Shown here piece by piece: positions 10,448 through 50,299 of a stretch of 64,000 nt of DNA. Within the stretch, counting starts at the first letter, position 1. Every line of letters begins with the position of its first letter. The notes beneath the pieces are model-generated. The model searched no databases and had not been told where the DNA came from. It worked only from the letters and a program-made list of their open reading frames with translations. Location of the stretch: the NCBI GenBank assembly GCA_963709585.1, contig CAVPXI010000014.1, positions 84,320 through 148,319 on the forward strand, written 5' to 3'. The position numbers were made by a program, and so were the translations under genes. This DNA is from Candidatus Dormiibacterota bacterium. Lineage in GTDB: Bacteria; Chloroflexota; Dormibacteria; Aeolococcales; Aeolococcaceae.

Positions 10448-10457
10448 GACACGCTCC

Positions 10458-12811: not shown

Positions 12812-13001
12812 GTTCGAGCCTTCACCACAGTGCCGGAGATGCTACTTGTGCGGACGGGCGACCGCAACCCCGGTATCACCCATTGGTATGAGAACCGATC
12901 TGAGGCAGTTGCGTTTCGCGGACAGGTGGAGTACACCGATGCATTACGCACTGGATCGCCGGGGGCTGGGCGAGGGTTTTGCCCCCGTGAGGAGGACCTT
13001 T

Positions 13002-14387: not shown

Positions 14388-14415
14388 CCAAGTCACCTCG
14401 CGCAAGCGCGGCCGG

Positions 14416-14439
14416 TCCGGCTCGGAAGCACGAGCCGGG
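14416..14439 (+). terminator. GC-rich hairpin downstream of the sugar-binding protein gene (possible intrinsic terminator, no T-tract)
   Basis: CCGGCTCG-gaagca-CGAGCCGG lies 30 nt after the stop at 14387. Confidence 0.3.
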
Positions 14440-14484
14440 CTGGCCGACAGCGCACCATCCGGGGGGCTGCGCCGGGTAACCCGA

Positions 14485-32663: not shown

Positions 32664-32723
32664 CCGAAGGGCTCGTGATCGGTACGCCGGTGCTAGGGTG
32701 GAAGTGCAAAGGAGGTAACCGCA

Positions 32724-33305: not shown

Positions 33306-33361
33306 CCGTCCTCCGAGCGTCGGATACCGCACCGGTTCCGACGCTCTGGAGGTGGGCAGCC

Positions 33362-36300
33362 TTAGGTGATATGGACGGTGACGGCCGTCGATGTCGTCGA
33401 ATTGCCGGCATTGTCCGTGGCCACGGCGGTCAAGGAGTAGGTTCCCCTCACCAGCTTGGTGGTGTTCCAGGCGAAGGTATATGGGCTGGTCTTGACCGTG
33501 GCCAGTACTGTGGTCCCGTTGAGATAGAACGTCACAGTCGCAATACCCGAGGCCGCGCCCGTGCCGGTGCCCACATCGGACGCGCTGGCCGTGACCGTCA
33601 CCTTCGTGCCCAAGGCAAAGCTCGATCCCGATGCGGGCGATGTGACCGAAACCACCGGAGGTGCGGCGTCGATCTTGATTGACTGGGACTTGACGGCTCC
33701 CTTGTTCCCGGCCACGTCCACCGAGAAGAACTTGATCGTGGCTGTTGCCGACACGGTGAAGGGCCCGGTGTAGACCGGGCTCGAGGTCGTCGGCGTCGAG
33801 CCGTCATTGGTGTAGTAGGTGGCGGCAACACCCGAGCCACCGGTGTTGTCCGTGGCCACCAGGGCGACGGTCACCGGAGTTGTCTTGTACCAGCCTGTGG
33901 AGCACGTGGTGCTGTTGCAGGTGATGGTCGTCGTCGGTGCAACCGTGTCGATCTGGATGGCCTGGGACTTGACGGCCTCGGCATTGCCGGCGTTGTCCAC
34001 CGAGAAGAACTTGACGGTGGTCGTGGCCGACACGTTGAACGGCCCGCTGTAGACCGGGCTCGAGGTCGTCGGCGTTGAGCCGTTGGTGGTGTAGTAGGTG
34101 GCCTTGACACCGGAGCCACCCGAGTTGTCCGTGGCCGCCAGGGCGACGCGCACCGGAGTTGTCTTGTACCAGCCTGTGGAGCACGTGGTGCTGTTGCAGG
34201 TGATGGTCGTCGTCGGTGCGACCGTGTCGATCCCGATGGCCTGGGACTTGACGGCCTCGGCATTGCCGGCGTTGTCCACCGAGAAGAACTTCACGGTGGT
34301 CGTCGCCGACACGGTGAACGGCGCGCTGTAGACCGGGCTCGAGCTGGTTGGCGTCGAGCCATTGGTGGTGTAGTAGGTGGCCTTGACACCGGAGCCACCC
34401 GTGTTGTCCGTGGCCGCCAGGGCGACGGTCACCGGTGTGGTGTTGTACCAGGCCGTGCACGCGGCGCTGTTGCAGGTGATCGTGGTCGTCGGTGCGACCG
34501 TGTCGATCTCGATGGTCTGGGCCTTGACGGACTCGGCATTGCCCGGCCTTGTCCACCGAGAAGAACTTGACGGTGGTCGTGGCCGACACGTTGAACGGCC
34601 CGCTGTAGACCGGGCTCGAGGTCGTCGGCGTTGTGTTGTCAATCGTGTAATAGATGGCCGCGACACCCGACCCACCGGTATTGTCCGTTGCCGTCAGGGC
34701 GACGCTCACCGGCGTTTTGTTGTACCCGCCCGAGGAGCACGCCGTGCCGTTGCAGGTGATCGTCGTCGTCGGTGCGCTGGCATCGATCTCGATGGTCTGG
34801 GACTTGACTGCCTCGGCATTGCCGGCGTTGTCGACGGAGAAAAACTTGACGGTGGTCGTGGCCGACACCATGAAGGACGCGGTGTAGGCCGGACTCGAGG
34901 TCGTCGGCGTCGAGCCGTCAATCGTGTAGTAGGTGGCCGCGACACCCGAGCCGCCGGTGTTGTCCGTGGCCGTCAGGGCGACGGTCACCGGAGACGTGGT
35001 GTACCAGCTCGTCGAGCACGCCGCGCTGTTGCAGGCGATGGTCGTCGTCGGCGGGGTGGTGTCGGGAAGCTGGACCTGGATCGATTGGGTGTTGACGGTC
35101 TCGGCATTGCCGGCGTTGTCCACCGAGAAGAACTTCACGGTCGTGGTCGCCGACACGTTGAAGGGCGCGGCGTAGACGGTGCTCGAGGTGGTCGGAGTCG
35201 AGCCGTCGGTGGTGTAGTAGGTCGCGGCGACCCCGGAACCGCCGGTGTTGTCCGTGGCCGTCAAGCCGACGGTGACCGCGGAGGTGTACGCGCTCGTCGA
35301 GCACACCGTGCCGTTGCAGGCAATGGTGGTCGACGGCGCGACGGTGTCAATCTGGATCGTCTGCGAGTTGACCGCCTCGGCATTGCCGGCGTTGTCGACG
35401 GAGAAGAACTTGACGGTGGCCGTCGCCGAAACTGTGAAGGGCCCGGTGTAGACCGAGCTCGAGGTCGTCGGTGTCGAACCGTCAGTGGTGTAGTAGGTGG
35501 CGAAGACACCGGAGCCGCCGCTGTTGTCCGTGGCGGCCAAGGTGACCGTCACCGGCGAGGTCTTGTACCAACCCGTGGAGCACGTCGCGCTGTTGCAGGT
35601 GAGGCTGGTCGTCGGCGGGGTGGTGTCCACCGTGATCTGGATCGCCTGAGTTTTGACGGCCTCGGCGTTGCCGGCCAAGTCGATCGAATAGAACTTCACC
35701 GACTTGCTCTGAGACAACGTGAACGGCGCCGCGTAGGCGGTGGCCGTGCCGCTGGTCGTGGGGTCGCTCCCGTCGGTGGTGTAGTAGGTCGCACGGATTC
35801 CGGAGCCACCGGCATTGTCGATCGCGGACAGACCCACCTGCACGGGAAGCGCGTAGCTCGCCTGACAGGTCGTGCTGTTGCAGCTGACGCTGGTGGTCGG
35901 CGGGACCGTGTCGATCTGGATCGCCTGCGACTTGACCGCTTCCGTGTTGCCGACCTTGTCGGTGGAGAAGAACTTCACCGTGGCCGTACTCGAGACGGTG
36001 AACGGTGCGGTGTAGACAGCGCTCGCGGTGGTCGGTGTCGAACCGTCGGTCGTGTAGTAGGTCGCCGCGACCCCGGAGCCGCCGATGTTGTCGGTGGCTG
36101 TCAGCGCGACCTGCACCGCGGTGTTGTACCAGCCCGTGCCGCAGACGAGGCCGTTGCACGTGGCGGTGGTCGTCGGCGGCGTGATGTCCGGCCCGGGCGG
36201 CGCCGTGTGGCAGTTGCCGGTGCCCGAGTTCGTGAAGGTGCTCTCCCCGTTGTTGATGAAGTTCCAGCTGTAGCTGCCGTTGTGCAGGGTCATCTTGATG

Positions 36301-39300
36301 ATCCCGTGCGTCGTGGCGTTCAGCACCTGGCTGTTGGGGGCTGGGCTCGCCGGCGTGTCCAGGCCGTTACCCCCGGTCCCCACCACGAATTCCTGCACGC
36401 CATAGGTCGGGTCCAGGACCCCGCTCGCGTTCTGTGGAGCGAACCGCTCGTACCAGTGCGAACCGGCGCTGAGGACGACGTCGACGCCACCGGTGTAGAG
36501 GTCTTGCCAGATCTGCTGGTAGGTGCTGTCGCCTCCTCCGGCCGTGGAGCTGAACCGTGGGTCCTTGTAGTAGGCGAGGGTGCAGACGGAGGTGTCATGG
36601 GCCAGGTCGTTCTGAAGCCACAGGTCCTCAGCGCCTCCGGCCGCGCAGAAGGTGGCGTCTGTCTGGCACGGCGCGGTGTTCAGGGCGATCATGTGCCACG
36701 AGCCGAGGTTGTAGCTGTAGTAGCCCTTTGTAGGGTCACCGGCTGCGGCTCCGAAATACTGGTAGTAGCCTGCACCGGCTGTCGTCGGACAATCGGTGCC
36801 CCCGGTCGTGGGCAGCTCGTAGCCATAGTCGTTGTCGCCCGGGACCGGGTGTGTGATCGCCAGCTTCTGTCCCCAGCTCAAGGCGTAGGACTGCAAAAAG
36901 GCCTGGTATCCACCGCAGTTGTACTGGGTGTCGCCGATGGGCAGGACCGCATCGACGCCCGTGAGCAGCTTCTCCGTGGAGGCGGCAACGCAGTCGGGGC
37001 TTACGCCGAACCCGTTGTTGAAGGCAGGGGAGTTGGGATCGCACGCGATGTCACCCGCGGCTCCGATGATCGGGTCCGGGTTGGGCGTCACCTGGATCTG
37101 CTGCGTCTCTACCGCCTCGGTGTTGCCGGCGTTGTCAACCGAGAAGAACTCCACGGTGGTGTTTTGCGCGATCGTCCACGGGCCGGTGTACTGGGGGCTC
37201 GACGTGGTTGGGGTGGTGCCGTCGGTGGTGTAGTACGTTGCCTTCACCCCGGCGCCGCCGGCGTCCGTCGGCGACAGCGCGAGCGTCGTGGAGCCGTTGT
37301 AGGTGCTGGCCTGACACGGCGCGCCATCACAGGAGATTGTGGTGACCGGCGGGGTGGTGTCGGGTGGGAAGAGCAGCTGACGTATGGTCTCGGTCGTGGT
37401 CCCGACCGGAGCGCCGCCTGGCTGGCCGGCGTTCTGCAGCCAGGTGACGAAGGCGCTGATTGTGTCGAGCTCGACAGCCCCTCCGGTGGCCACGCAGGCG
37501 CTGTAGCCTGCCGGGTCGTAGGTCTGCGAGCAGATGTCATGGATCACCACGGGGACCCAGCCACCGCCGTTCTGGTAGGCGGCCGTCACCGAGTTCTCGA
37601 AGTACGAGAGAGGGATCTCGTTGGTGCCGTTGCCGTTGTAGATGGTACGGGTCGCCAGCATGTTCTTGGGCGGGATGGTCTCGGAGTAGAGCGGTCCGGC
37701 GCCGACACCGGCCACGTCGATGCCACCCGCGGCTCGAGCGGTCGTGTATCCGCACCCCTGCACGATCAACTCGGCATTGGCGTTATAGGCGCCGTAGCCA
37801 TACGCGAAGCCGACCGGGTCGAACCCGTGGGCGATGAGGTTCTCTCGATCGATGCAGGTGTTGTCGATCTTCTGCTGCTGGGTCGTCGCGGAGCTGGTGA
37901 GATCCATCTCCTGAAGACCGTGCCCGGCGATCTCGTCGCTGTGGTTGTAGAGAGTGGTCATCTCCGCGTAGGTCATCTCGTTGGGGTCCACGCCGACCTG
38001 GCCCGTGTTGACATAGAAGGTGGCGCGGACATTTCCGTCGGGCAGGAGCACATGTTCAAAAGCGAGGGAGTACCCGGCCTCATAGCCGTCGTCGAAGGTG
38101 ATCGTGACGATGGTCGCGAAGTTGATGGTCTGCGACTGCGGCTGCTCGGCATTGCCGGCAAGGTCGGTCGAGAAGTAGCGGATCGTCGCATTCTGCTGGG
38201 CGGTGAAGGGACCCGTGTAGACCGTGCTCGAGGTGGTGGGCGTTGACCCGTCGATGGTGTAGTAGGTGTTGGCCACGCCCCAGCCACCGTTCGGGTTGTC
38301 CGTCGCGGTGAGGGTGACGGTCACCGGCGCTGTGTAGGGAGTGGTGGCGCACGGCGCGCCGTTGCAGCTGATGCTGGTCACCGGTGGCGTGGAATCGGGC
38401 TGTTCCACGAGAGAGATGGACACCGAGCCGACCCCTGTGGCGTTGCCGGCGTAGTCCCAGGATTCGTAGGTGACCGTGGTCGAGGCGGTGAGTGGGAAGG
38501 TCCCGGTGTAGAGAGTGCCGCTGGTCGGCGATGGCGTGCTGCCGTCGGTGGTGTAGCGGGTGCTGGCCACCCCCGAGCCGACATCGGTCGGCTGCAGGGT
38601 CACGTAGACGGTGCCCTGATAGGTGGTCGACAGGCACGAGGCTCCGTTGCAGGAGACGCTGCTGACCGGCGGCACCGTGTCAACCGTGGTGGCGGTGGGA
38701 TGGATGGGCTCGAACACCGACCCGGCCGGGGCGCCGCCGCTCTGACCGGTGTTCTGCACCCAGGTGAGGAAGGTGTTGAGGTCACCGAGGTCGATCCAGC
38801 CCGCCACCGAGGTGCAGGTCGCGTAGTTGCTGGGGTCGAGGGTGGATGAGCAGACCCGCTGGATGACGATGGGGACCCAGCCTCCGCCGTGGGCGGCCGC
38901 CCCGGTCACCAACGCCTCCAGGTTGGCCAGGGTGACCTGCCCGGTGGGGGCGTAAGCGCGCAGCCCCAGCCAGTCCTTGGGCGGTAGGGTCTCCGCGTAG
39001 GTGGGTCCGGTGGGCGACAAGCTGCCGGCGGTGCGCGCATTGCCGTAGCCGCAGCTCTCGACCTCCTGCTCGAGACTGGCGTTGAAGAATCCTCCCGGGT
39101 AGGCGAAGGTGGTCGGGGTGATGCCGTGCTGGAGGATGGTCTGCCGGTCGTTGCAGATCTCGCCGATCTGCTGCGCGGCGCTCAGTGTGGTGAGATTCGT
39201 GTCGTCGACGGTCTTGCCGCCGATGTCGTTCCCGGCCGCAGCCAAGGCGCTCAGCTGCGCCCAGGAGAGGGTGGTCGCGCGGCCGATGGTGCCGCTGTTG

Positions 39301-40862
39301 ACGTAGAAGGTCGCGGTCACGCCATGGGGCTGCAGAGCCTGCTGCCAGCCCAGGGTGTACTGACTGTAGCCGCCATTGTCAAAGGTGAGCGACACCGCCG
39401 TCTTGTACGGCTGCACCTGGACCTGCTGCGACTCCACCTGCTCGGTGTTGCCCGCGAGGTCGGTTGAGAAGAATTGGACGTTCGTCGAGGCGTTCAGCGC
39501 GAACGGCCCGGAGTACACCGGGCTCGATGTGGTCGGCGTCGAGCCGTCGGTGGTGTAGTAGGTATGAGCTACCCCCCAGCCGCCGGCATTGTCGGTGGCG
39601 TTGAGGGTCACGCTGACGGTTCCAATGTATGGAGTCGACAAGCAGGGCGCGTTGTTGCAGGCGATGGTCGTCGTCGGTGGCGTGGTGTCGGGTGGCGGCT
39701 GGATCGAGAGTGCCTGCGTGTTCACCGCCTCGGCATTGCCAGCGTTGTCCCACGAGCTGTATTCGACGGTCGTCGAGGCGGTCAGCGGGAACGGGCCGGT
39801 GTACGCGGGGCTGGTCAGCGTGGGCGTGCTGCCGTCGGTGGTGTATCGGGTCGTGGCCACGCCGGAGCCGAGGTCGGTCGCCGCGAGCGCCACCGAGACG
39901 GTTCCGCTGTACGTGCTGGACTGACACGGCGCTCCGTTGCACGAAATCAACGTCGTCGGCGCCACCGTGTCGGCTGAGGTTGCCGCAGCCCCGATGGTCT
40001 TGAAGACCGTGCCTGCGGGTGCGCCACCCGTCTGCCCGGCATTCTGCACCCAGGTCAAGAAGGTGTTGAGGTCTGCGAGGTCGATCGCCCCGGCAGACGC
40101 CAGGCATGTGCTCTCGTTGGGGTCAGTGGGAGAGCAAACCTTCTGGATCACGATCGGTACCAAGCCCCCGGTGGTCGCCGCGCCGTTCACCAGGTTCTCG
40201 AGGTTGGTCAGGGTGACCTGCACGGAGGCGGACCACGCGCGCATCGCCAGCCAATTCTTAGGCGGCGTTGTCTCCGCGTAAGTCGGCCCAGTGGGAGAGA
40301 GGCTTCCTGATGTGCGGGCGTTGCCGTAACCGCAGTTCTGAACCTCACTCTCGATCGTGGTGTTGAAGGCACCGGCCGGGTAGGCGAAGGTAAACGGCAC
40401 GATGCCGTGCGACATGATGTTCAGGCGATCGCCGCAAATCTCGTTGATCTGCTGCGTGGAGGTGAGCGTGGTCAGGTTGGTGCCGTCGGTGGTCTTGCCG
40501 CCGATCTCATCGCCCGCGCCGGCGAGCGTGCCCAGCTGCGTCCACGAGATTTTAGTGGTGCTTGTTCCGGTCGCGACTGTCCCGCTGTTCACGTAAAAGG
40601 TCGCGGGAACGGCGTGCGGCTGCAGGGCCTGCTGGTAGCCGAGCGTGAACTCGCTGGCTGTGTTGTTGTCGAAGTTGAGCGAGACGATCGTCGAGGTAGC
40701 CGCACGTGCGCTGAGGACGCCCGGCCCGAACATCACGGGCGCCACCGCCACCATCGCGATCGCGAGGGCGAGGCAGACACCCGGGCGCCTCATCGAGCGG
40801 AGGTGCCCCGATTCCGTTGCGTCGTATCGCCGTTGAGTTTTTCCGCCTTCCACCTTGCTCAC
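33362..40862 (-). pseudogene. giant (about 2,500 aa) secreted multidomain protein: 3 CE4/NodB-like domains, a purple-acid-phosphatase-like metallophosphoesterase, 14 tandem 93-aa modules and a terminal Ig-like domain; one apparent frameshift
   Basis: ORF 33804..40862 is coherent until ...VKFFSVDKAG and then degenerates. ORF 33362..34675 continues in another frame (NAESVKAQTIEIDTVAPTTT...). At 34541-34550 the sequence reads gcccggcctt where sister repeats read gccggcgtt. Approximate layout: signal peptide MRRPGVCLALAIAMVAV (ATG 40793; the ORF could also start at GTG 40862); CE4-like domains at about 39960-40690, 38700-39400 and 37390-38110; phosphoesterase at about 36330-37080 (GDIACD, GDTQYN, AGSHWYER); repeats at 33669-36198 and between the enzyme domains. 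Confidence 0.85.
33669..36198 (-). repeat. nine head-to-tail coding repeats of about 279 bp (93 aa) inside the giant gene
   Basis: Antisense shadow ORFs recur at 33819, 34098 and 34377 (279-bp spacing, peptides mostly identical) and again at 34654 and 34933. Protein consensus: TVAPTTTITCN..C....Y...V.V.L.ATDN.GGSGV.ATYYT.DGSTPTTSS.VY.GPF.VSATTTVKFFSVDNAGNAEAVKSQ.I.ID. Confidence 0.9.
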
Positions 40863-40941
40863 CCCTTCTTGTCAACCCGGTGCACCGCTGCCTTCAGCAA
40901 TGCTGTTATTCGGTCTATCGGCGTCATCGCATGTGTATTGC

Positions 40942-41886
40942 TCACTGTGTCATCGCCTGGCGTACGGTCTCGACGACCGTTCCCGCGGGCGCGCCACCCG
41001 GATGTCCGGCGGCCGCAAGCCAGTCAAGGAACTGGCCCATCAGCCGGTCGTCGATCGCACTCCAGCTCGACATGCAGGTCTTGTAGTCGGCCGCGGCGTG
41101 GTCGCAGACCTGGTGGAAGGTGAGCGGCAGCCAGCCGCCGCCGTGCGCCGCCGCCGCGTTGACGAAGGTCTCCAGGTCAGCGAGGTTTTTCGCCTTCGGT
41201 GCGTCGACATCGACGGTACGCAAGGCGTACGGGTCCTTCGGCGGCAGCGTATCCGCCCAGGGGAAGCTCGGGACCGTGGTTAACAGAGATGCGTCCCCAC
41301 CTTCTCTGGAGTTCAAGTATCCGCACGACCCGACGATGGCCTCGGCGGCGGTGTTGAATGCGCCGAACGGATACGCATACGAGACCGGGTCCACGATCCC
41401 GTGGGCGAGCAGGTCCGTGCGCGACCCGCACACGTCTGCCAGCTTGTCGGTGTAGGAAACTGCCGGATCGGTAAGCCTGACGTGACTCACACCATGCCCA
41501 CCGATGTCGTCGCCCTCGCTCTGCAGCGTGCGCAGCTGTGCAAACGACATGCAGCAGCGGAAGGGTCCGTCACTGTCCGACGTGATCACGTAGTACGTCG
41601 CATTCATGTGACGCGCGCGAAGCAGCGGTCGCAGGTAAAGGTACTGGTCCAGGTAGCCATCGTCGAAGGTGAGCGATATCACCAACTTTGGGGGGCGCAG
41701 ATGGACCACCGTGGTGTTCGCCTGCGCGGAGGCGCAAGCGCTGACCCCCCACGCAGTCGCTATCGACACTGCCCCGAGGGCAGCGACTCTCAGAAAACGC
41801 CGCGGTTGCTGACTCGAGCGCACGCGGCGCTGCACCTGCTCGAGCGGACTGCGTCGTGGCGGGATGCCTCGGTGCACGTCGCTCAT
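40942..41886 (-). CDS. polysaccharide deacetylase (CE4/NodB homology) family protein, secreted
   Basis: ORF 40942..41964, trimmed to the ATG at 41886, which forms an ATGA overlap with the upstream gene. Signal peptide. Canonical ISLTFDDGY motif, GGHGVSH, YAYPFG. The C-terminal segment is paralogous to the domain tails of the giant protein (HGGGWLPLTFHQVCD...GGAPAGTVVETV). Confidence 0.85.
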   Translation of the reverse strand: MSDVHRGIPPRRSPLEQVQRRVRSSQQPRRFLRVAALGAVSIATAWGVSACASAQANTTVVHLRPPKLVISLTFDDGYLDQYLYLRPLLRARHMNATYYVITSDSDGPFRCCMSFAQLRTLQSEGDDIGGHGVSHVRLTDPAVSYTDKLADVCGSRTDLLAHGIVDPVSYAYPFGAFNTAAEAIVGSCGYLNSREGGDASLLTTVPSFPWADTLPPKDPYALRTVDVDAPKAKNLADLETFVNAAAAHGGGWLPLTFHQVCDHAAADYKTCMSSWSAIDDRLMGQFLDWLAAAGHPGGAPAGTVVETVRQAMTQ

Positions 41887-42698
41887 GCCTGCTCCGTGCC
41901 CACGAAGTTCTCGTAGACGGTCTCGGCTCGCTTGCGCAGGACCGCGAGCGAGGGATGCGTCCACTGTTGGCGCAGCGACCGCTTGGTGTCCTCACGATTC
42001 GCGGACGGGACCCACGCCTCCCTGTCCTCCAGCGATGTCGCGGCGCGAAGGTCGGCGAGCGCTTTGTCCAGCTCCGCTCGACTGACCTTCCCCGACTCGA
42101 AGCCGAGCAGGATCCGCGAGAGCGTGCCGCGCAACCCGGAGAAATCGAGGACCTCGCGCACACTTGATTCCGTGTGCTCGAACTCCGCGAAGCTCGTGCG
42201 GAAGCGCGTGTTGAGTCGCCGGATCACGTCGCCGAAGTCGTTGGTGACCTGCTCGAACTCACCGACCACGAACCGGTCGCGGTAGGGAAGCAGGCACGTG
42301 TAGAACCGCGAGTACGCGATCAGCGCGCCGGACACGCTCACCCAGGGCTCGCGCACAACTTGAGACAGGATTGCCCCCTGCGGCTTGCGGATCAGCACAA
42401 GCGCCGGTACGCCGCGCCGGGCCGCCTCGATCAGTTGCGCCGGGGCGTGCAGGTGGTGCGCCAGGCGCACCGGCTTGGGTTGCGACAGCTGCAGCGCATA
42501 AACGGCGAATGTCGTCGCGGATCGCGTGTAGCCGTCGATCACCAGCTCGGTCTCAGGGCTGATCACCTCCGGGCTGGGGCCGGGATATTTCCGCCGCGCG
42601 AACGGCAGATAGAGCGACGGGTACTCCGCTACCCGCGTACGCAGCCGGTGCCGGGCTCGGCTCGCAAGGGAGACCGACGATCGAGCGACCACTGTCAC
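41883..42698 (-). CDS. hypothetical protein with sulfotransferase-like PAPS-binding motifs
   Basis: GTGA overlap with the GT4 stop. LVIDGYTRSATTF resembles the 5'-PSB loop (xRSGTT). LVLIRKPQGAILS fits the 3'-PB pattern R-x7-S. No other recognisable domain. Confidence 0.55.
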   Translation of the reverse strand: MTVVARSSVSLASRARHRLRTRVAEYPSLYLPFARRKYPGPSPEVISPETELVIDGYTRSATTFAVYALQLSQPKPVRLAHHLHAPAQLIEAARRGVPALVLIRKPQGAILSQVVREPWVSVSGALIAYSRFYTCLLPYRDRFVVGEFEQVTNDFGDVIRRLNTRFRTSFAEFEHTESSVREVLDFSGLRGTLSRILLGFESGKVSRAELDKALADLRAATSLEDREAWVPSANREDTKRSLRQQWTHPSLAVLRKRAETVYENFVGTEQA

Positions 42699-43933
42699 AC
42701 CTCCACAGCCACGCGGTCGTGCTGAAGAGCGTCATGGCGCTTGCGGCCGAGAAGTCGCTGGTAGACCTTCAAGTAGGTGCTTTCCTGCCGCTCCCACGCG
42801 AGCCGCTGGGCAACCCCTCGGCGTCCGGCCCGTCCCATGTCGGCCCGAAGCTCAGGGTCGTCAAGCAGCTTGTCGACCAGGCGCGCGAAACCGATCACAT
42901 CTCTGGACACCGCGTACGCCGCTGCGTCGCCGGCGAGCGCCCTGGTCTCCCGAAGGTCGAAGCCGACGAAGGGCAGCCCGTACGCCATGTACTCCATTCC
43001 TTTGACCGGTGAGACGATTTCCTCGAGGTTCGGCTCCAGCCCGAGATCGGCAGAGGACAGATAGGTGGACACCGCCTCCTGCCCGACCCAACCGGTGAAG
43101 CTAACCCAGTTTTCGAGGCCGAGATCCGCGGCGAGTTGCTCACACGCCGCGCGCGCCTCACCGTCTCCCAGGAAAGCGAAATGGCAATCCGTTCGACCGA
43201 TCACATGGACCAGGTGATCGACCATCCGAAGGGCCACGTCGACACGGTCCTGCGGGCCCATGAAGCCGACCCAGCAGCAGAGGTAGCGTCGTCCCTTCTT
43301 GAGCTCGGGACGCATCGGCACGACGCGCAACTCTTCGAGCACGGGGCCGTTGCCGACGACGCTCACCTTTCCTGGCCGTAGACCACCTCGAGCGTACGCG
43401 ACGTTCTCGAGCGACTGATTGACAGTGATCACGTGATCGGCGACCCGATAGCTCTCCCGCTCGAGCCAGCAGAGCAACTGGAACACGATTCCGCGACGGA
43501 GGCCGTATCGCAATTGGTACAGCTCAGGCGAGAGATCCCGCTGATCGAGCACGAGGCGGCGGCCGAGGAGCTTGAAGGGCGCTCCGATGGCGAAGTAGAT
43601 GTCCGGCGTTCCGCTGACCTGGACGGCATCGAACGGATCGCTGACGAAGACCCGGACGGAGAGAAAGGCGGCCAGCAACCACGAGTAGCCGTATTCGCGG
43701 ATGAAGCCGATCTTGCTCGTGGCGTCGGCCGGCGCGCGGTACTCGTGCAGTCGAGTTGCGGCGTACCGGCCGTTCCCCGGGTCGGCACGGCAGATCACAC
43801 TCACTCGGTAACCGCCCGCCACCAGCGTTGCCGCCTGTTTCTGGAGCCTGTGGTCACGGGCCAGCGGCACGTTTTCGACGATGAGCAGGATGTGAGGAGG
43901 GCGCACGGAATCAGCCGGCGACCAAGTTCGCAC
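42695..43933 (-). CDS. glycosyltransferase family 4 (GT-B, group 1)
   Basis: HILLIVENVPLARDHRLQKQAATLVAGGYRVSVI N-terminal domain. C-terminal domain with the E-x7-E-like region (LEPNLEEIVSPVKGMEYMAYGLPFVG). Confidence 0.85.
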   Translation of the reverse strand: MRTWSPADSVRPPHILLIVENVPLARDHRLQKQAATLVAGGYRVSVICRADPGNGRYAATRLHEYRAPADATSKIGFIREYGYSWLLAAFLSVRVFVSDPFDAVQVSGTPDIYFAIGAPFKLLGRRLVLDQRDLSPELYQLRYGLRRGIVFQLLCWLERESYRVADHVITVNQSLENVAYARGGLRPGKVSVVGNGPVLEELRVVPMRPELKKGRRYLCCWVGFMGPQDRVDVALRMVDHLVHVIGRTDCHFAFLGDGEARAACEQLAADLGLENWVSFTGWVGQEAVSTYLSSADLGLEPNLEEIVSPVKGMEYMAYGLPFVGFDLRETRALAGDAAAYAVSRDVIGFARLVDKLLDDPELRADMGRAGRRGVAQRLAWERQESTYLKVYQRLLGRKRHDALQHDRVAVEV

Positions 43934-43957
43934 GTGCCCGCCGAAGCCGGGATCAAC

Positions 43958-44665
43958 TCAACCGGGCGCCCTCCCATTGCTCGCATGCAAACTCGCCGGG
44001 GCAGCCTCCGGCACCGTAGGGTCGGCATTCTCCGGATGCAGGACGAGCTGGATCGTGCCGTTCTCGACGTGGAACTCTGTCACCGAGCCGCGTCTGACCG
44101 GGTGTCGCCAACTCCTGCCGTCGACGCCGGTCAACTCCAGCATCACCAGCCGGATCATCACTGCGTGGGTCACCGCGGCCACCGATTCGCCTGCGTGCCG
44201 AGAGCCGATGAACTGAACCGCCTCGAGCATCCGACGCTGCGCGACCATCAGCCGCTCGCCCTGTGGGCAGGCCGCGATCCGGGGTGACAACTCGTAGAGG
44301 CTGTATGCCTCCGGGTCGTAGAGCGCCGCTTCCTCGGGCGTCATGCCCTCCCAGGCGCCATAGTCGAGGTTGTTGAGCCCCTGGAGAATGCGAAGGTCAG
44401 GAACCCAGTGCTCGTCAGCGATGATCTGCGCGGCGGCGATCGTGCGCCGGAGCGGCCCGGTGTACACCGAGGTCAGCCCCGCGCCGTCCAGGCGCCGCGC
44501 CGCATCGACTGCGTCGCGGTAGCCCTGAGCATCCAGCGGGACGTCTCGGCGGCCCCGGTATCGATTCTCCACGGTGAGCGACGTCGTTCCGTGCCGGACC
44601 AGGTACAGCCGGCATGCCGCCGCACTGCGGCGCTTGGTGTCTCGAATCGCCATCCGCGCGGTCAT
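43958..44665 (-). CDS. histidine phosphatase superfamily (phosphoglycerate-mutase-like) protein
   Basis: RLYLVRHGTTS (RHG catalytic motif) and a later H in AVTHAVMIR. ATGA overlap with the stop of the upstream Wzz/kinase-like gene. Confidence 0.8.
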   Translation of the reverse strand: MTARMAIRDTKRRSAAACRLYLVRHGTTSLTVENRYRGRRDVPLDAQGYRDAVDAARRLDGAGLTSVYTGPLRRTIAAAQIIADEHWVPDLRILQGLNNLDYGAWEGMTPEEAALYDPEAYSLYELSPRIAACPQGERLMVAQRRMLEAVQFIGSRHAGESVAAVTHAVMIRLVMLELTGVDGRSWRHPVRRGSVTEFHVENGTIQLVLHPENADPTVPEAAPASLHASNGRAPG

Positions 44666-46290
44666 CGGCGCGGGCTCGACGGGCGTTCACTCCGGGGAGC
44701 GGGTTCCGCGGCCTCGTCTTCCCCGGCGTTCTCAATGTTGAGCAGCGTGCTCGACGGGCTGGGAATCTTTGCGGCCCGCGCGGAGTGCCCGTTGAGTGCC
44801 GGTGCGGGCGCGGTGACCGGGTCAGGCGTCTCGACCTTGGCGGCAGACCTCTCCGCCGCCTCGGCGGGTGTGGTCAGCGGGCGCGGAAGGCGGCGCGCTC
44901 TGCCCACGTTGACGAGCGCACACGCGACCAGGTCGTCAGGCGAACGCCCGAGCTGAGACATCGCGGCCCGCACCTGAGCGCGTGTCGACAGCCGGGCATC
45001 AGCAACGAACAGGATCATATGGCTCAACTGGGCGAGCACCTCGGTGTCCGCGCTCGCCAGCACCGGCGGCGCTTCGACCACGATGAAATCAGCCCGATCG
45101 CGGAGCTGCCCGAGGAGTCGTGGCAGGGCAGGCGAGACCATCATCGCTCCAGGGTCGGGCACCGAACGGCCGGCCGAGATCAGCTGCAGCCCGGGGACGT
45201 CGGTGTCGCGCAGTGCAGAGCCAAGGCTCGAACGATCCAAGAGCACGCTGCTGAGTCCGACCCCCTCGCTCAGGCCGAAGAGCTCATGAGTGCGGCTCCC
45301 TCGCAAGTCCGCGCAGACCAGGATGACTTGCCGGCCGGACAGCGCCAGGGCCGCGGCCAGGTTCGCCGCGACTGTGGCCTTGTCTTCCCGGGTCGCGCTG
45401 GTGACCGTGAGCGTGTCGGCACTTCGCCCACTGGCCGCCTGGAGGACCCGTGTCCGTAGGTCGCGATATGCCTCGGCGACGCGGGAGCCTGGACTGTGAA
45501 CGATGACGAGCCGCTCGCCCGCGGACCGCTTCCGGGTACGGAAAGCCGGGATCAGTGCCAGGACCGGCGCATCGGCCTCGGTCGCCAGATCGAGGGGCCC
45601 ACGAAGGCGGTCGTCGATCGCGTCACGCGCGAAGGCCACACCGACCCCCAGCGCCAAACCCAGAATCAAGGCGACGCCGACGTCCAGCCAGCGATTCGGA
45701 CCTGTCGGGGATGCGGGCCGGGAGGCATCACTGATGAGGCTTGGCCGCACCGCGCCGGGCGCGGCCGGAGCCGGGGTCTTGCTGCCTGGCACGAACGTCG
45801 GCGCAGGAGTCCGAAATCCAACATAGGCCTCCGCAATACCCTCAGCCGCGCGCTGAGCCTGGATCGGGTTCGGAGCTGAGAAGGCGATGTCGAGCAGATC
45901 GGTGTCCACCGGGACGGTCACCGACAACCCGGACTGCAGCGCGCTCGGCGAGATCTCCGCCGCCCTCGAGGCGATCAACAGCACTGCCTCCGACGACACG
46001 ATCCCCTTCTCGGTGGCCATCACCACGGGCTGCTGGCTCGCGGCACTCGCCGATTCGGCGAAGACGACCACCGTCGCGTGCGACGTGTATATCGACTTCT
46101 GCTCCTTCGCCACCACGTACGCGCCCGCCGTCACCGCCAGGGCGATCAGCAGGATCCACGCCAGGTGCGCCCTCAGGAACCGCGACCCGACCCCGGTCTC
46201 GCGCGCCCGGGGTGCGCGAGGCGGCGGGATTGCGGTGTAGCGCTCGCCGCCGCCCTCCAACTGAGTGGGCAGTCTTGAGTGTGCACTCAT
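44662..46290 (-). CDS. polysaccharide co-polymerase (Wzz domain) fused to a BY-kinase-like P-loop domain with degenerate motifs
   Basis: ORF 44662..46692, trimmed to the ATG at 46290 (MSAHSRLPTQ). TM helix plus Wzz-like region (AKEQKSIYTSHATVVV...LLDIAFSAPNPIQAQRAAEGIAEAYV) and a second TM helix. The ATPase-like domain reads TSATREDKAT, LVCADLRGS and FIVVEAPP in place of canonical Walker A, A' and B. Confidence 0.8.
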   Translation of the reverse strand: MSAHSRLPTQLEGGGERYTAIPPPRAPRARETGVGSRFLRAHLAWILLIALAVTAGAYVVAKEQKSIYTSHATVVVFAESASAASQQPVVMATEKGIVSSEAVLLIASRAAEISPSALQSGLSVTVPVDTDLLDIAFSAPNPIQAQRAAEGIAEAYVGFRTPAPTFVPGSKTPAPAAPGAVRPSLISDASRPASPTGPNRWLDVGVALILGLALGVGVAFARDAIDDRLRGPLDLATEADAPVLALIPAFRTRKRSAGERLVIVHSPGSRVAEAYRDLRTRVLQAASGRSADTLTVTSATREDKATVAANLAAALALSGRQVILVCADLRGSRTHELFGLSEGVGLSSVLLDRSSLGSALRDTDVPGLQLISAGRSVPDPGAMMVSPALPRLLGQLRDRADFIVVEAPPVLASADTEVLAQLSHMILFVADARLSTRAQVRAAMSQLGRSPDDLVACALVNVGRARRLPRPLTTPAEAAERSAAKVETPDPVTAPAPALNGHSARAAKIPSPSSTLLNIENAGEDEAAEPAPRSERPSSPRR

Positions 46291-46364
46291 ATGATTCGAG
46301 TTCTGCCGCGAACGGGTGGGCGATGGTTCAGTTGTTTCGTCCGCGCGATCCCATAAAGGCGTGT

Positions 46365-47879
46365 TCACATCAGGTCCTCGTTCGCTGGCGCTTGCTGTCG
46401 GCTGGGGGAGCGCGCGACCGCGGCGCGCCGGGTTCCGGTAGCGGCCAGGGCGGCCAGAATGAACATGGCGTCGGCTGATCCGCGATACGTTAGGTGGGGA
46501 TCGAACACCATCAGGACAGCGGTCACGATCACCGCGACGAACGTGGCAGATCCAGCGATACCGGCTGCGTCTGCGCTCCCACGCGCCACTCGCCATCCGC
46601 GCTTCGCCATCGCGACGACGAAGAAGACAAAGCTTGCGAACAGCGGGATCCCGCCTCCCCAGAGCAGCCAGGTGTAGCCGCTCTCGATCCACACGTAGCC
46701 GGTCCCCTGAGTCGCCACCGCAACTCGTGCGGCCGGGCGGACACCGAGAATGAAGTTCCAGTCAGCGAACAGCTGCGGCCAGAAGTAGTTCTGCAAATTC
46801 TGCACTCGGTCTGTCCAGCTGACCGGCAGCCCGCTGGCCGACCCGAAGCTGCCGAGCCGGACGGCGAGCACCGGCCACACGACCACTGAGCCGATCAGCC
46901 CGGCGGGAACAAGGACTTTGAGCAGCCGCGCGGAATTGGTCACGGCTGCGATACACGCGGCGCCCACCAGGAGGCCGATGACGCCGGAGAACTCGCCCGC
47001 GGACAGCGTCCCCAGAACGAGCAGCCCGGCAGCAGCTCCGAGCAGGGCTCGGTGGCGGCGGCCACGCGACAACATGGCACCGACGATCGCCAGGTTGTAG
47101 ACCATGAGATCCGCAGTCGCCGCAGGCAGCCCGAGGGTCGAGCTGCCACGCGCCGGAAAAGCCTGCGTGTAGCCATCGGGCGCAAAAAATGTGGCGAGGA
47201 ACCTCGGGACCCCGAAGAGGCTCAGTGACTGCACGATCGCGACCACTGCGACAATGCACGCGGCGGCGACTGAGATCCACAGGCAGCGGAGGATTTGTTG
47301 ATCCGTGGTGACGCTCATGCGGATCACCGCGTACAGGCCGAGGAACTTCCAGAGCACGAGCGCGTACAGCAGATCGTCAGAGGTGATCTGCTCCTGGCGG
47401 ACTGCCATCCACAGCAGGGGGACGACGGAGCTGCACACGGCCAGCAGAACGATGGAAGCCTCGACAGCCCCGATCCGGAGTCGCGGTAGCCGTCCGGTTC
47501 GCAGCCCGACGATGCCGCGTGTCCCCAGCGCCACGCCCGCGATCAGGACGATCGCCTCGTTCGGCCGAAGCACGGGTATCGCCGAACCGCGGTTGATCCC
47601 GGCGGTCAGCGGGGTGAGTCCGACGATCAGGAAGGCGCCCAATGCGGGCCATCGCCATACGCAGGCAATGAGCCCCAGGAGCAGCAGCGCGGCAAGAGCG
47701 TACAGCGGGGCAAAGGTGCTGGCGGCGCCCGCCACCGCGGCACCGACCAGGATCGGCCCGAGGAACCAGCGTCCGGACGGGCGGCCAAGCCGAGGCCATT
47801 CGCGGCCCCAGGGCGTGGACGTGGTCCCGACGCGATCAGCGCCCCGGGTCGTTCCGAGCCGCGCGCCTGCTTCAACCAT
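46365..47879 (-). CDS. O-antigen ligase / Wzy-like polymerase family membrane protein
   Basis: ORF 46365..47942, trimmed to the ATG at 47879, which shares its A with the upstream TGA. At least 10 TM helices with a large loop. Typical context between the flippase and the co-polymerase. Confidence 0.75.
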   Translation of the reverse strand: MVEAGARLGTTRGADRVGTTSTPWGREWPRLGRPSGRWFLGPILVGAAVAGAASTFAPLYALAALLLLGLIACVWRWPALGAFLIVGLTPLTAGINRGSAIPVLRPNEAIVLIAGVALGTRGIVGLRTGRLPRLRIGAVEASIVLLAVCSSVVPLLWMAVRQEQITSDDLLYALVLWKFLGLYAVIRMSVTTDQQILRCLWISVAAACIVAVVAIVQSLSLFGVPRFLATFFAPDGYTQAFPARGSSTLGLPAATADLMVYNLAIVGAMLSRGRRHRALLGAAAGLLVLGTLSAGEFSGVIGLLVGAACIAAVTNSARLLKVLVPAGLIGSVVVWPVLAVRLGSFGSASGLPVSWTDRVQNLQNYFWPQLFADWNFILGVRPAARVAVATQGTGYVWIESGYTWLLWGGGIPLFASFVFFVVAMAKRGWRVARGSADAAGIAGSATFVAVIVTAVLMVFDPHLTYRGSADAMFILAALAATGTRRAAVARSPSRQQAPANEDLM

Positions 47880-49577
47880 CAATGCACTCCGCCGTTGCCG
47901 GCCGGGCGGTGGCGCAACTGGCCGAGCCCGCCGACGAGCCATCCAAGCTCAGGGGACCGCCACCAGGCTTGCAGCGCCAGGAACACGGCGCCTCCGACCA
48001 GGGCGGCTGCGAGTATTCCGACCCGAGGGCCGAACGATCCGCCGAGCAAGCGCGGGATGGTAGCCGCCACGATCCACGCCGGCCCGGCCATGACCACGGC
48101 AGCGGCCGCGAACTTGGCGATCGAGGGCAGCAGCCGGTACGAGGCGGCTCCACCGACGTTCCGCCTGACGCGGGCGTTCAGATGGAGGCCGGCCACCGCG
48201 GTCGACGCAGACAGGGCCAGCCCGAGGACCAGCACCACTGCCGGGCCGTGGACGAGGAGCGAGCTGGTCGCCAGCGACAGGCACGTGACCGCCTGAATCA
48301 GCATCGAGACCAGCGGCGACCGCGTGTCCTTCATCGCATAGGAGGCGTAGGTCGCGATCATGAACGCCGTCTGGCCGACGACGGCCACCGATAGCGCAGC
48401 GAGTGAGAAGGCCACCAGGTTGATGCCCGTCGCTGTATCCATCCTGCCGAACGAGATCGCTCGGCCCAGGGGGAAGGCCAGCACGAGGTAGCCGACGGCG
48501 GCCGGGATGGCGACGAAGAATCCCAGGGCCAGGCCGCGCACGAGCGCGTCGCGAAATGCGGCAAGGTCGCCGGCGAGGTGCATCCGCGCGAGCCTCGGGA
48601 GCAGGGAAAGCGCCACCGGCGTCGCCCCGATCGCGATCGCCAGGTAGTAGAAGTTCAGTGCGATCTGGAAGGCGACGACTCCCCCTTCAAGCCGATTGGC
48701 CATCACCAGGAGGGTCAGAATCTGAACCGCGCCGAGCCCGGCTTGCGCCAGTGCCGGTAGCGCCCGCCGCACGACGGTGCGAACCTCAGGGTCGCGCCAC
48801 CCGGGGAGCGGCACGAGGACCACGCCGGCCCGCCGTGCCCCCCACCACTGCGTCGCCGCATGCAGGGCGACCGCGCCGGTGGAGCCGAGCCCGAGGAGGA
48901 GGATCTCGCCGAGGGGCACGTCTGTGACGTTGGTACTCGAGCCGTAGAGCAGCGCGGCGGCACCAAGCACCGCAATCGTGCCCAGGTTCTCCACGGCCGG
49001 GGCGCCGGCAGCGAGCGCGAAGCGCCGTCGCGAGTTCATCACCGCGGTCGCCGACCCGACGACGCCGTAGAGAAAGATCTGCGGGATGAACATGAGAATG
49101 AGGAGTTGCCCGACGCGCACCTGTGCGGCGCTCGTGAGCGCATGTCCCCCGCCCAGCGCCGCGAGCCGCAATGCCTGGGGGCCGAGGCCGACAGCCACCG
49201 GGGTGATCACGAGCAGCGCTATCAGCGTCATGCCCAGGAAGCCACCCGCGACCCGTTCCGATGCCCGACGGTCGCCGGCGTCGATATGGCGCACGAGCGC
49301 CGGAACCAGCAGCGACGAGAAGAGCGAGCCGGCCAGGAAGCCGTAGTAGACGAGGTTGGGAAGTGAGTTGGTGAACTGATAGGTGTTCCCGAAGAAGGTG
49401 GGGCCGAGGACCGCTCCGATCACGGCGAATCGCATTAGCCCGGTGACCCGGCTGACGATCGTCCAGGCCGCAACAGTTAACGAGTTCGCCTGCGGCGGAG
49501 ATTGGGCTGAGGTGCGGCTCCGGCTCGCGCGCGGAAGTCGCGGCCGGCACCAGGAGAGTCGAGGATGGTGTGCTCAT
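47879..49577 (-). pseudogene. MurJ/MviN-type (MOP superfamily) lipid-linked glycan flippase, one apparent frameshift near the N-terminus
   Basis: ORF 47879..49435 starts at MRFAVIGAVLG. Its frame reads ANSLTVAAWTIVSRVTGL just upstream (MurJ N-terminal signature) but has no start codon. The ATG at 49577 forms an ATGA overlap with the upstream gene and opens MSTPSSTLLVPAAT...SAAG in another frame. The frames switch at about 49483-49497. Confidence 0.75.
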
Positions 49578-50299
49578 CGCGCCCCGGTTGTGGAGAGCAC
49601 GACCGGCACCGTCCGCAGCAGGATGGAGAGATCGAGGGTGAAGCTCCTCCTGTCCACATACTCGATGTCCAGGTCGAGCCCGTCCTTCATGGTGAGGCTG
49701 TTCCTGCCACTGACTTGCCAGAGGCCGGTGAGGCCCGGAGCGACGAGAAACCGCCGGGAGTGGGGTGGACGGATCAACTCCGCCTCCCAGGGCAACGCTG
49801 GGCGCGGCCCGACGAGCGACATGTCCCCGCGAATGACATTCAGCAGCTGTGGGAGCTCGTCGATGCTGGTCCTGCGCAGCAGCCGGCCGACCTTGGTGAT
49901 CCGCGTGTCGTTTTCGAGCTTGTAAAGGCCCTGCCGCCCCCCGGTTGGCGGCTGGTCCAGCGTGAGCAATTGGGTGACGTAATTGCGATGGACGTCATCT
50001 GGGGAGCCAGCGTGCATCGTCCGGAACTTGTAGAGCACGAACGGCCGCTGTCCTCGGCCAAGCCGGGTCTGCCGGAACAGCGCCGGTCCCGGGCTGGTCA
50101 GCTTGATCAACACAGCCACGAGAACGAGCAACGGGGATACCAGGATCAGACACGCCGACGCAATCACGATGTCCAGCACGCGCTTGCTGGGCGGCGTGCG
50201 CAGCGGAACATCACGTGCGTCGTCGATCGGAAGGTCCGCTGCGGCGCGAAGGTGATCGCTGAAGATCATCGAAGCCTCACCCTTGCTCCTCGCTTCCAT
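49574..50299 (-). CDS. undecaprenyl-phosphate sugar-phosphate transferase (small PglC/WbaP-C-type 'bacterial sugar transferase')
   Basis: RVLDIVIASACLILVSPLLVLVAVLIKLTSPGPALFRQTRLG, YKFRTM, DELPQLLNVIRGDMSLVGPRP. The start ATG at 50299 shares its A with the upstream TAA. Confidence 0.9.
   Translation of the reverse strand: MEARSKGEASMIFSDHLRAAADLPIDDARDVPLRTPPSKRVLDIVIASACLILVSPLLVLVAVLIKLTSPGPALFRQTRLGRGQRPFVLYKFRTMHAGSPDDVHRNYVTQLLTLDQPPTGGRQGLYKLENDTRITKVGRLLRRTSIDELPQLLNVIRGDMSLVGPRPALPWEAELIRPPHSRRFLVAPGLTGLWQVSGRNSLTMKDGLDLDIEYVDRRSFTLDLSILLRTVPVVLSTTGAR

Follow-up and report, generated by a model that had tools for sequence, protein, structure and literature searches.

The window analysed here is a stretch of 64,000 nt from contig CAVPXI010000014.1 of a Candidatus Dormiibacterota assembly (GCA_963709585.1), and positions are counted from its first letter. 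Its reverse strand carries a giant gene (33362-40862), the last of a co-directional series whose upstream part is a polysaccharide gene cluster (40942..53338). Once a single base is removed, the gene encodes a protein with the domain order CE4-m-m-CE4-m-m-CE4-m-PAPlike-9m-Ig, where CE4 is a carbohydrate esterase family 4 (NodB-type) deacetylase domain, m a module of ~93 aa, PAPlike a domain resembling the purple acid phosphatases (PAPs; P domain hereafter) and Ig an Ig-like domain. Our analysis identified this gene as an ordinary member of a widespread protein family that is annotated but unstudied.

As sequenced, the coding region spans 7,501 nt, a length not divisible by 3 that makes a single open reading frame (ORF) impossible. 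Rather, it comprises two ORFs in different frames of the reverse strand. ORF A (40862 to 33804, 2,352 aa) is regular up to '...VKFFSVDKAG' and out of frame afterwards, so that its final ~247 aa form an Arg/Gly/His-rich sequence, while ORF B (34675 to 33362, 437 aa) is out of frame over its first ~45 residues, after which the module series resumes from 'NAESVKAQTIEIDTVAPTTTITC...' and continues to a clean stop. The frame switches within 'aag gcc ggg caa tgc cga g' (34550-34532), whose GGG run lies at 34542-34544; every other module reads 'gcc ggc aat gcc gag' at this position. Deletion of one G from the run yields a 7,500-nt frame for a 2,499-aa protein with zero internal stops. An initial annotation of this DNA, which described a single protein of about 2,500 aa, therefore had the layout right, but it read across the frameshift without reporting it, and a product of that length (2,499 aa) exists only after the one-G deletion.

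The one-base frameshift, which falls in module 11, is probably an assembly error and not biology. The best database homologue (P0001), an intact protein of 2,287 aa from a Candidatus Dormibacterota metagenome-assembled genome (MAG), is 95 % identical, and its contig (L001) is collinear with the window over 16.5 kb at ~92 % nucleotide identity. At the junction, L001 reads GCC-GGCAAT where the window has GCCGGGCAAT, the extra G being absent from L001. Downstream of the site (3'), frame B differs from L001 by 25 synonymous and 16 non-synonymous changes in 393 codons, which indicates that this frame has been kept by purifying selection. Similar lesions occur elsewhere in the window. The MurJ-type flippase gene (47879-~49577, reverse strand) has an extra A at ~49486 relative to L001 (GCGAACTC versus GCG-ACTC), and the first ~30 residues of its product (MSTPSSTLL...) lie in a different frame from the remainder; in a GGDEF-EAL gene (61117-63372, forward strand), the EAL domain changes frame near 62700 and again near 63010 and so occupies three frames, amounting to two more apparent one-base frameshifts. 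The lack of the extra G in L001 and the presence of four isolated one-base lesions in 64 kb favour an assembly error, since an indel-prone assembly fits this pattern better than parallel pseudogenisation.

Two biological explanations were considered for the same site. The frameshift could be a real recent mutation, marking a recent pseudogene or truncated allele, in which case the product would be the 2,352-aa protein with its last ~247 residues out of frame and Arg/Gly-rich, without modules 12-14 and the C-terminal Big_7 domain. This would match the literal coding of the sequence, and module arrays seem disruption-prone: at locus L004 of an Acidimicrobiaceae MAG (10001-15872), a 1,410-aa homologue (P0097) is followed by an overlapping 560-aa ORF holding CHB_HEX_C modules only, which looks like another frameshift split inside a module array. 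However, the extra G is missing in a close relative, the downstream frame is under purifying selection with no further lesions, and at least three other isolated one-base frameshifts affect conserved genes in the same window, leaving a genuine lesion unlikely, if still credible. Control of the synthesis of the C-terminal modules at the G run, through programmed ribosomal frameshifting or phase variation, was rejected as barely conceivable; the site does lie within a short homopolymer, but three G are too few for slipped-strand phase variation, neither a slippery heptamer nor an obvious stimulatory structure is present at the site, the 95 %-identical orthologue is in frame and other genes of the window carry the same kind of lesion. 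A further isolated one-base insertion relative to L001 is found at 50351 (reverse strand; GATCGAACTC versus GATCG-ACTC), at the 3' end of the hexapeptide acetyltransferase gene, where it alters the C-terminal residues and the position of the stop.

The true start is likely the ATG at 40793 (M24), as the 95 %-identical P0001 begins at the window's Met24, which would give a precursor of about 2,476 aa. Read by eye from Met24, the N terminus resembles a Sec-type signal peptide (MRRPGVCLALAIAMVAVAPVMFGPGVLSARA, followed by A) with an ARA/A cleavage site, in agreement with the signal peptide first proposed. At the other end, the protein closes with ...TAVTVHIT and, as also stated initially, has no C-terminal anchor motif. 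A scan of 32600-41100 returned 0 promoter-like sites, and terminator-like sites numbered fewer than expected from shuffled sequence.

The layout of the initial annotation (three CE4 domains, 2+2+1+9 modules, a phosphatase-like domain and an Ig-like domain) was borne out by domain mapping (Table 1). Pfam profile scans supported the three CE4 domains, the CHB_HEX_C nature of the modules and the Ig-like domain, which is a Big_7 domain (PF17957, E=1.1e-17) in the last 100 residues; the PAP-like domain needed further methods. The 14 tandem modules are ~93 aa each, share 44-89 % pairwise identity and carry a Cys pair and the motifs ATDN.GGSGV, YYTTDGSTPT and FFSVDNAGN. At the nucleotide level, Tandem Repeats Finder (TRF) detected a 279-nt period with 8.8 copies at 33668-36138. 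Two modules matched PF13290 (CHB_HEX_C_1; 102 bits, E=1.3e-29) and PF13287 (Fn3_assoc; 90 bits, E=7.4e-26) above threshold, and among NCBIfam models the module corresponds to the OmpL47-type beta-barrel domain NF047446 (43 bits, cut-off 40). P0001 has 12 modules against 14 in the window, the two missing ones corresponding to approximately aa 1935-2100; this could be a true difference in copy number or a repeat collapse in a short-read MAG. The Cys pair of each module and eight invariant Cys residues of the P domain fit an extracellular protein.

All three CE4 domains were assigned by PF01522, with scores of 50.3, 68.3 and 42.1 bits for domains 1, 2 and 3 (cut-off 23.1). To read their motif columns, we aligned 119 domains of the type of domain 3 (C-type) and 186 of the type of domains 1 and 2 (B-type) from the 120 best homologues listed, anchoring the register by profile alignments to solved CE4 enzymes (7y51 and 6dq3). 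The Asp-Asp pair of motif 1 (MT1; TFDDG in domain 3), the first metal His of MT2, a conserved Arg and the catalytic His of MT5 (VVIHDIC in domain 3) are each present in 119/119 C-type domains; the second MT2 ligand is His in 82/119 and Glu in 37/119, with Glu in domain 3 of the window (GHGLQE). B-type domains retain the first Asp of MT1 and the conserved Arg (both 186/186), but the metal Asp is replaced by Asn in 161/186 (FDNN and FDNG in the window), the first metal His by Lys in 183/186 and the catalytic His by Gly or Gln, the latter in both domains of the window. The MT2 pattern H(S/T)xxH is absent from all three domains, domains 1 and 2 reading GGKT..D/T without a His. As the Asp-His-His metal triad and the catalytic His are missing, in a pattern conserved over 186 domains, domains 1 and 2 are therefore best regarded as putative conserved pseudo-deacetylases, deacetylase-like in fold only. 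The initial description of three deacetylase-like domains thus stands as a family assignment, whereas the two upstream domains lack both the triad and the catalytic residue; its choice of the third domain for activity assays was apt, for the catalytic set is kept there alone, and domain 3 is the only plausibly active deacetylase domain of the protein.

A family profile of the C-type domains hit PplD (6DQ3, 7e-13) best in the PDB, followed by an acetylxylan esterase (7y51, 2e-12), while a single-sequence PDB search with domain 3 gave marginal PdaA matches together with spurious ones. None of the equivalog families HfsH, PgaB, PdaA/B and NodB accommodates the domains, the best scores being 13-44 bits against cut-offs of 197-400 bits and above; domain 2 has a weak NCBIfam match to HfsH (5e-6). 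A B-type profile search of 1.84 billion representatives returned 654 clusters (50 % identity) at E<=1e-30, a count in which B- and C-type domains are not separated and which includes stand-alone proteins of 270-450 aa.

The P domain (aa 1259-1555) was harder to place. Its motifs are GDIACD, GDTQY(N), GDNDY, YYKDP and AGSHWYER; the three quoted initially in support of a metallophosphoesterase (GDIACD, GDTQYN and AGSHWYER) are all present in the translation. In Pfam, it did not match PF00149, and PF14008 (Metallophos_C) scored 15 bits (E=0.042), below the cut-off of 23; single-sequence searches gave no PDB match at E<=10 (phmmer) and no NCBIfam match. A 15-sequence family profile, however, retrieved PAPs from the PDB (6gja, 6e-7; lupin PPD1, 7e-5; mammalian tartrate-resistant acid phosphatases (TRAPs), about 3e-3). 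An AlphaFold2 (AF2) model of the domain reached moderate confidence (predicted local distance difference test (pLDDT) 67.6, predicted template modelling score (pTM) 0.75), and the top 31 Foldseek matches of this model were all PAPs (E ~1e-10, TMq 0.60-0.70), followed by GAP50, PhoD, Lmo2642 and GpdQ. The modelled fold is thus a metallophosphoesterase beta-alpha-beta-alpha-beta sandwich with PAPs as its nearest neighbours. At least 575 loci in a scan of representative genomes encode P-domain relatives. Those that are 44-52 % identical are secreted proteins of 320-1,400 aa with a mostly N-terminal domain; they carry GDIACD/GDxQY/GNHE/WHxP/GHxH and pass PF00149, L018 and L081 among them. The agreement of family profile, model fold matches and bridging canonical relatives therefore makes the fold and ancestry of the P domain PAP-like.

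PAPs have seven invariant metal ligands in five motifs (D, GDxxY, GNH(D/E), H and GHxH). We compared these positions over 113 family sequences and the canonical relatives. The Fe(III)-site residues (D, D, Y and the last H) are invariant (113/113) and are kept in the window, in P0001 and in the canonical relatives. The divalent metal (M(II)) half is changed. Canonical GNHE becomes GD(K)D in the CE4-linked family and GDND in the window and P0001, the auxiliary His being Lys in the family and Asn in the window; the motif-IV His (canonical WH) is Gln in 109/113 and Lys in the window and P0001; and the first His of GHxH is Asp in 107/113 (GDSH) and Gly in the window and P0001 (AGSH). The M(II) ligands therefore read D/Q/D in the family, against D/K/G in the window and P0001, and the window domain does not carry the seven-ligand PAP signature. 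The conservation of these replacements across the family suggests that the remodelled site still functions, perhaps with a harder divalent cation, whereas the P domain of the window protein itself may be mononuclear or non-catalytic. The PAP resemblance initially noted is thus upheld by profile and fold; a plain metallophosphoesterase assignment is not, given the lack of PF00149 and of the ligand signature.

The architecture is shared well beyond this locus. Searching with aa 1-1650, we retrieved 672 proteins at E<=1e-10, dozens of which (1,900-2,700 aa) cover 96-100 % of the query. Nocardioides, Oryzihumus, Pedococcus, Jatrophihabitans, Pseudonocardiales, Frankiaceae, Gaiellaceae and Streptosporangiaceae are among the named sources, and the 120 best homologues listed derive mostly from Actinomycetota and metagenomes. 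Nocardioides agariphilus and Pedococcus sp. 2YAF34 encode the family members P0046 and P0050, respectively. Among the 120 best homologues listed, the proteins follow a common grammar: one to three B-m-m units (a B-type CE4 domain and two modules), a C-type CE4 domain, a module, the P domain, 0-11 further modules and a terminal Big_7 or PKD domain. Approximately 50 proteins of ~1,100 aa consist of B-m-m-C-m-P only, and this core (pseudo-CE4, two modules, C-type CE4, module, PAP-like domain) is common to most of the 120. The initial annotation could match the architecture to no characterised protein, and none was found here either; its unusualness did not hold, as the same domain order is found across all 120 best homologues listed and is not a one-off. 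Members bear unspecific names in the databases, such as 'chitobiase/beta-hexosaminidase C-terminal domain-containing protein' or 'PgdA/CDA1 family deacetylase', and in one case (P0043) 'alkaline phosphatase'. One MAG (MFD10113.bin.4.266) holds two family members on different contigs (L008 and L009), each with homologues of the cluster genes described below nearby, which suggests paralogous clusters in that genome.

The gene cluster upstream of the giant gene (Table 1) begins with a GFO/IDH/MocA oxidoreductase, a DegT aminotransferase and a hexapeptide acetyltransferase. This trio resembles the route in which UDP-N-acetylglucosamine (UDP-GlcNAc) 3-dehydrogenase is followed by 3-amino and 3-N-acetyl steps and fits the synthesis of a 2,3-diacetamido sugar, with scores below the equivalog cut-offs. 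The cluster is of Wzx/Wzy type and appears to make a diacetamido-sugar polymer, possibly sulfated. Immediately upstream of the giant gene lies a 340-aa CE4 protein with an N-terminal hydrophobic anchor or signal and the motifs FDDG, GHGVSH and FHQ; it is a paralogue of the third CE4 domain of the giant protein, and its best NCBIfam match is HfsH (1.6e-11), far below the cut-off.

Table 1. Features of the giant gene and of the adjacent polysaccharide cluster (window coordinates)
Feature	Coordinates	Strand	Basis or remark
Whole coding region as sequenced	33362..40862	-	ORF A + ORF B; 2,499 aa once one G is deleted
Probable true start ATG 40793 (M24) and Sec-type signal peptide MRRPGVCLALAIAMVAVAPVMFGPGVLSARA	40701..40793	-	Start of P0001; signal judged by inspection
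CE4/NodB domain 1, aa 56-296, B-type (FDNN, GGKT, IQK)	39975..40697	-	PF01522 E=2.8e-13; motif columns
Modules 1-2, CHB_HEX_C_1/Fn3_assoc type, ~93 aa each	39402..39974	-	
CE4/NodB domain 2, aa 488-726, B-type (FDNG, GGKT, IQR)	38685..39401	-	PF01522 E=7.6e-19; profile versus PDB 7y51 2e-7
Modules 3-4	38118..38684	-	
CE4/NodB domain 3, aa 916-1166, C-type	37365..38117	-	PF01522 E=1e-10; profile versus PDB PplD 6dq3 7e-13
Module 5	37089..37364	-	
Purple-acid-phosphatase-fold domain, aa 1259-1555	36198..37088	-	Profile, AF2 model, motif alignment
Modules 6-14, nine-module tandem array, 279-nt period	33668..36197	-	Holds the frameshift
Frameshift site, GGG with one extra G	34542..34544	-	Close to end of module 11 (Gly2107); L001 comparison
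C-terminal Big_7 Ig-like domain, aa 2399-2499	33365..33667	-	PF17957 E=1.1e-17; stop codon 33362-33364
340-aa CE4, canonical DD/HxxxH/H	40942-41964	-	
271-aa protein, sulfotransferase-like	41883-42698	-	No Pfam family
GT4 glycosyltransferase	42695-43933	-	
His_Phos_1 phosphatase	43958-44665	-	
Wzz/BY-kinase	44662-46692	-	
525-aa multi-transmembrane protein, putative polymerase	46365-47942	-	By composition only
MurJ-type flippase	47879-49435	-	
Small Bac_transf phosphoglycosyl transferase	49574-50299	-	
Hexapeptide acetyltransferase	50299-51126	-	
DegT aminotransferase	50937-52076	-	
GFO/IDH/MocA oxidoreductase	52073-53338	-	Best NCBIfam match UDP-GlcNAc 3-dehydrogenase

Linkage of the family to such a polysaccharide locus is conserved across taxa. 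We searched 83 fetched loci with the cluster proteins of the window, counting a locus as linked when at least two cluster genes lay within 10 kb. This was the case for 11/12 independent loci of the CE4-linked family, the exception being a 6-kb contig, compared with 1/69 control loci encoding a canonical P-domain protein without CE4. At that single control locus (L057, 8239-10843), a WbaP-like Bac_transf gene is directly followed by one for a stand-alone P-type domain of 322 aa, as part of a different cluster that includes Wzy_C and a BY-kinase.

The 271-aa cluster protein shows 52-67 % identity across distant loci and has more than 1,060 homologues named 'hypothetical'. It has no Pfam match at E<=10 and no NCBIfam family, and its profile found no meaningful match among PDB sequences. 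Its AF2 model, which is of high confidence (pLDDT 87.8), retrieved, as its 50 best PDB fold matches, exclusively sulfotransferases dependent on 3'-phosphoadenosine-5'-phosphosulfate (PAPS), with weak superpositions (E ~1e-4, template modelling (TM) score ~0.36). In three distant loci (L002, L004 and L005), a homologue adjoins ATP sulfurylase or adenosine-5'-phosphosulfate (APS) kinase. The protein probably represents an undescribed sulfotransferase family, as judged from its modelled fold, and these fold matches together with the adjacency to ATP sulfurylase or APS kinase make a sulfated polymer a reasonable hypothesis.

Several characterised systems offer partial parallels. PplD of Streptococcus pyogenes (PDB 6DQ3) de-N-acetylates the GlcNAc-1-phosphate linkage unit of the wall rhamnopolysaccharide (PMC8807736). 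It is the best solved match of the C-type profile and an extracytoplasmic CE4 enzyme acting on its own wall glycan, and both PplD and the C-type domains of the family read 'AYPxG' instead of RPPxG; that its substrate adjoins a phosphodiester is a suggestive parallel to a CE4 domain fused to a phosphoesterase-like one. However, PplD is membrane-anchored, consists of a single domain and carries the canonical Asp-His-His Zn site, whereas domain 3 of the window has Glu at the second His, and the match is barely better than that to acetylxylan esterase 7y51; we therefore treat it as a lead only and not as a specific orthology. HfsH (Caulobacter holdfast), PgaB and IcaB (poly-N-acetylglucosamine, PNAG) are likewise CE4 proteins of polysaccharide loci that partly de-N-acetylate an exported polymer, but they are small or two-domain proteins and have neither tandem pseudo-CE4 domains nor a PAP-fold domain nor a repeat stalk.

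The pseudo-CE4 domains have precedents in the inert CE4 proteins Ba0150 of B. anthracis (4M1B) and EcCDA of E. cuniculi (2VYO), which have a NodB fold but have lost MT1/MT2 residues (PMC10967932). The loss of metal and catalytic residues resembles that in domains 1 and 2; in contrast, the B-type domains form a conserved subtype of their own (FDN, invariant Lys) that is always fused upstream of an apparently active CE4. The P domain shares fold, profile match and a complete Fe(III)-Tyr half with PAPs (TRAP 1UTE/1WAR, kidney-bean 4DHL, lupin PPD1 3ZK4, wheat phytase 6GJA) but differs in the changed M(II) half of the family (GD(K/N)D, motif-IV Gln/Lys, GDSH or AGSH) and in the lack of a PF00149 match. 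Its evident evolutionary source, on sequence comparison, is a group of 'AGDIACDP' metallophosphoesterases of Chloroflexota, Actinomycetota and Acidobacteriota (L018, L019, L081), which are 44-52 % identical to the P domain over its full length and have the same Cys pattern. These uncharacterised, secreted proteins differ in their canonical GNHE/WHxP/GHxH motifs, in being stand-alone or fused to CBM96/Fn3-like domains and in being unlinked to the cluster, with L057 as the sole exception.

Taken together, we consider it somewhat better than an even chance that the giant protein is secreted and both modifies and binds the glycan that the neighbouring cluster produces, and we class it with the cluster-encoded secreted CE4 polysaccharide modifiers. 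Once exported by the Sec route, it would stay associated with the cluster's polymer, which would be an extracellular or wall glycan rich in N-acetyl groups (2,3-diacetamido sugar) and possibly sulfated. The two B-type CE4 domains, which keep the conserved Asp and the invariant Lys, may act as glycan-binding domains, while domain 3 would remove N-acetyl groups from the polymer and so tune its charge and cohesion (compare HfsH, PgaB, IcaB and PplD). The PAP-derived domain may bind, or in most family members hydrolyse, a phosphate or sulfate ester on or near the same substrate, and the 14 disulfide-containing beta-sandwich modules with Big_7 would provide an extended spacer whose length varies between genomes. 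A number of observations weigh against this account. Domain 3 has Glu and not His as second metal ligand, and the canonical MT3 Arg is Ala; the P domain of the window and P0001 is devoid even of the replacement M(II) ligands seen in the family (it has Lys for Gln and Gly for Asp), and its model confidence is moderate. Neither an anchor nor a known glycan-binding motif connects the protein with the cell surface. At two of the family loci (L002 and L012), the cluster is incomplete, with His_Phos_1 and the sulfotransferase-like gene as its only members nearby. The sulfotransferase assignment depends on weak superpositions (TM ~0.36), and the ORFs scanned in the cluster and its flanks (22-64 kb) contained no domain of ATP sulfurylase or APS kinase. 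Literature searches on the family found no characterised member.

Two competing accounts and one bolder version of our own were weighed against these data. The protein could be mainly a structural matrix, sheath or adhesin component whose four enzyme-like domains are lectin-like binders without catalysis. Two of its three CE4 domains are clearly dead, with precedents in Ba0150 and EcCDA (PMC10967932), its PAP-like site lacks three canonical ligands and two of the family's substitutes, the repeat stalk makes up more than half of the protein, and the canonical 340-aa CE4 encoded immediately upstream could supply the deacetylase activity. We nevertheless regard this as unlikely: the DD pair, His, Arg and catalytic His of domain 3 are invariant in 119 homologues, with the His-to-Glu variant in 37, and this invariance speaks for a maintained active site. 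That the protein is instead a secreted nutrient scavenger unrelated to the cluster, deacetylating and dephosphorylating foreign chitin, peptidoglycan or teichoic acids in soil, is more doubtful again. CHB_HEX_C modules are, as the Pfam name implies, typical of secreted chitinolytic and other glycan-active enzymes, PAP-type enzymes and PhoD (which is among the fold matches) are classical phosphate scavengers, one homologue record is named 'alkaline phosphatase' (P0043) and fusions to CBM96-like and further binding domains occur among the relatives whose P domain is canonical. Against this, cluster synteny is specific to the family (11/12 loci versus 1/69 controls), it is exactly the CE4-linked family whose phosphatase metal site has been remodelled, and two CE4 domains are non-catalytic. 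The reading of a modifier and binder of the cluster's glycan can also be taken further, to a dedicated extracellular 'finishing' enzyme for a sulfated glycan of diacetamido sugar, hitherto undescribed, in soil Actinomycetota, Acidimicrobiia and Dormibacterota; here the invariant-Lys pseudo-CE4 domains would be lectins, one CE4 would de-N-acetylate and the PAP-derived domain would hydrolyse or read a sulfate or phosphate ester, repurposed with its Fe(III)-Tyr site intact and its second-metal ligands replaced by Asp/Gln/Asp. We think this quite improbable, though if true the purple-acid-phosphatase fold would gain a novel reaction or way of binding, and there would be evidence that these three groups make sulfated wall polysaccharides or exopolysaccharides.

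Secreted CE4 deacetylases determine the sticking and cohesion of bacterial exopolysaccharides and their resistance to attack by host or environment, as for PNAG, the holdfast and streptococcal wall glycans. To this class, the family adds unstudied elements, namely tandem pseudo-deacetylase domains, a remodelled PAP-derived domain and a repeat stalk of variable length. It is common in soil Actinomycetota and uncultivated Dormibacterota and is tied to one conserved cluster with a Pfam-less sulfotransferase-like protein, and cultivable carriers among Nocardioides, Pedococcus and Oryzihumus make the hypotheses directly testable. For the window itself, the outcome is more modest: an ordinary family member whose disruption is probably an error of assembly.

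Finally, the part of the window at 1-22 kb is separated from the cluster by unrelated transport genes and does not belong to it. Two forward-strand genes converge on the 3' end of the giant gene: one (30351-32663) encodes a 770-aa protein with Peptidase_C39-like and TIG domains, and the other (32724-33305) encodes a 193-aa protein without an assigned family that is 94 % conserved in L001.

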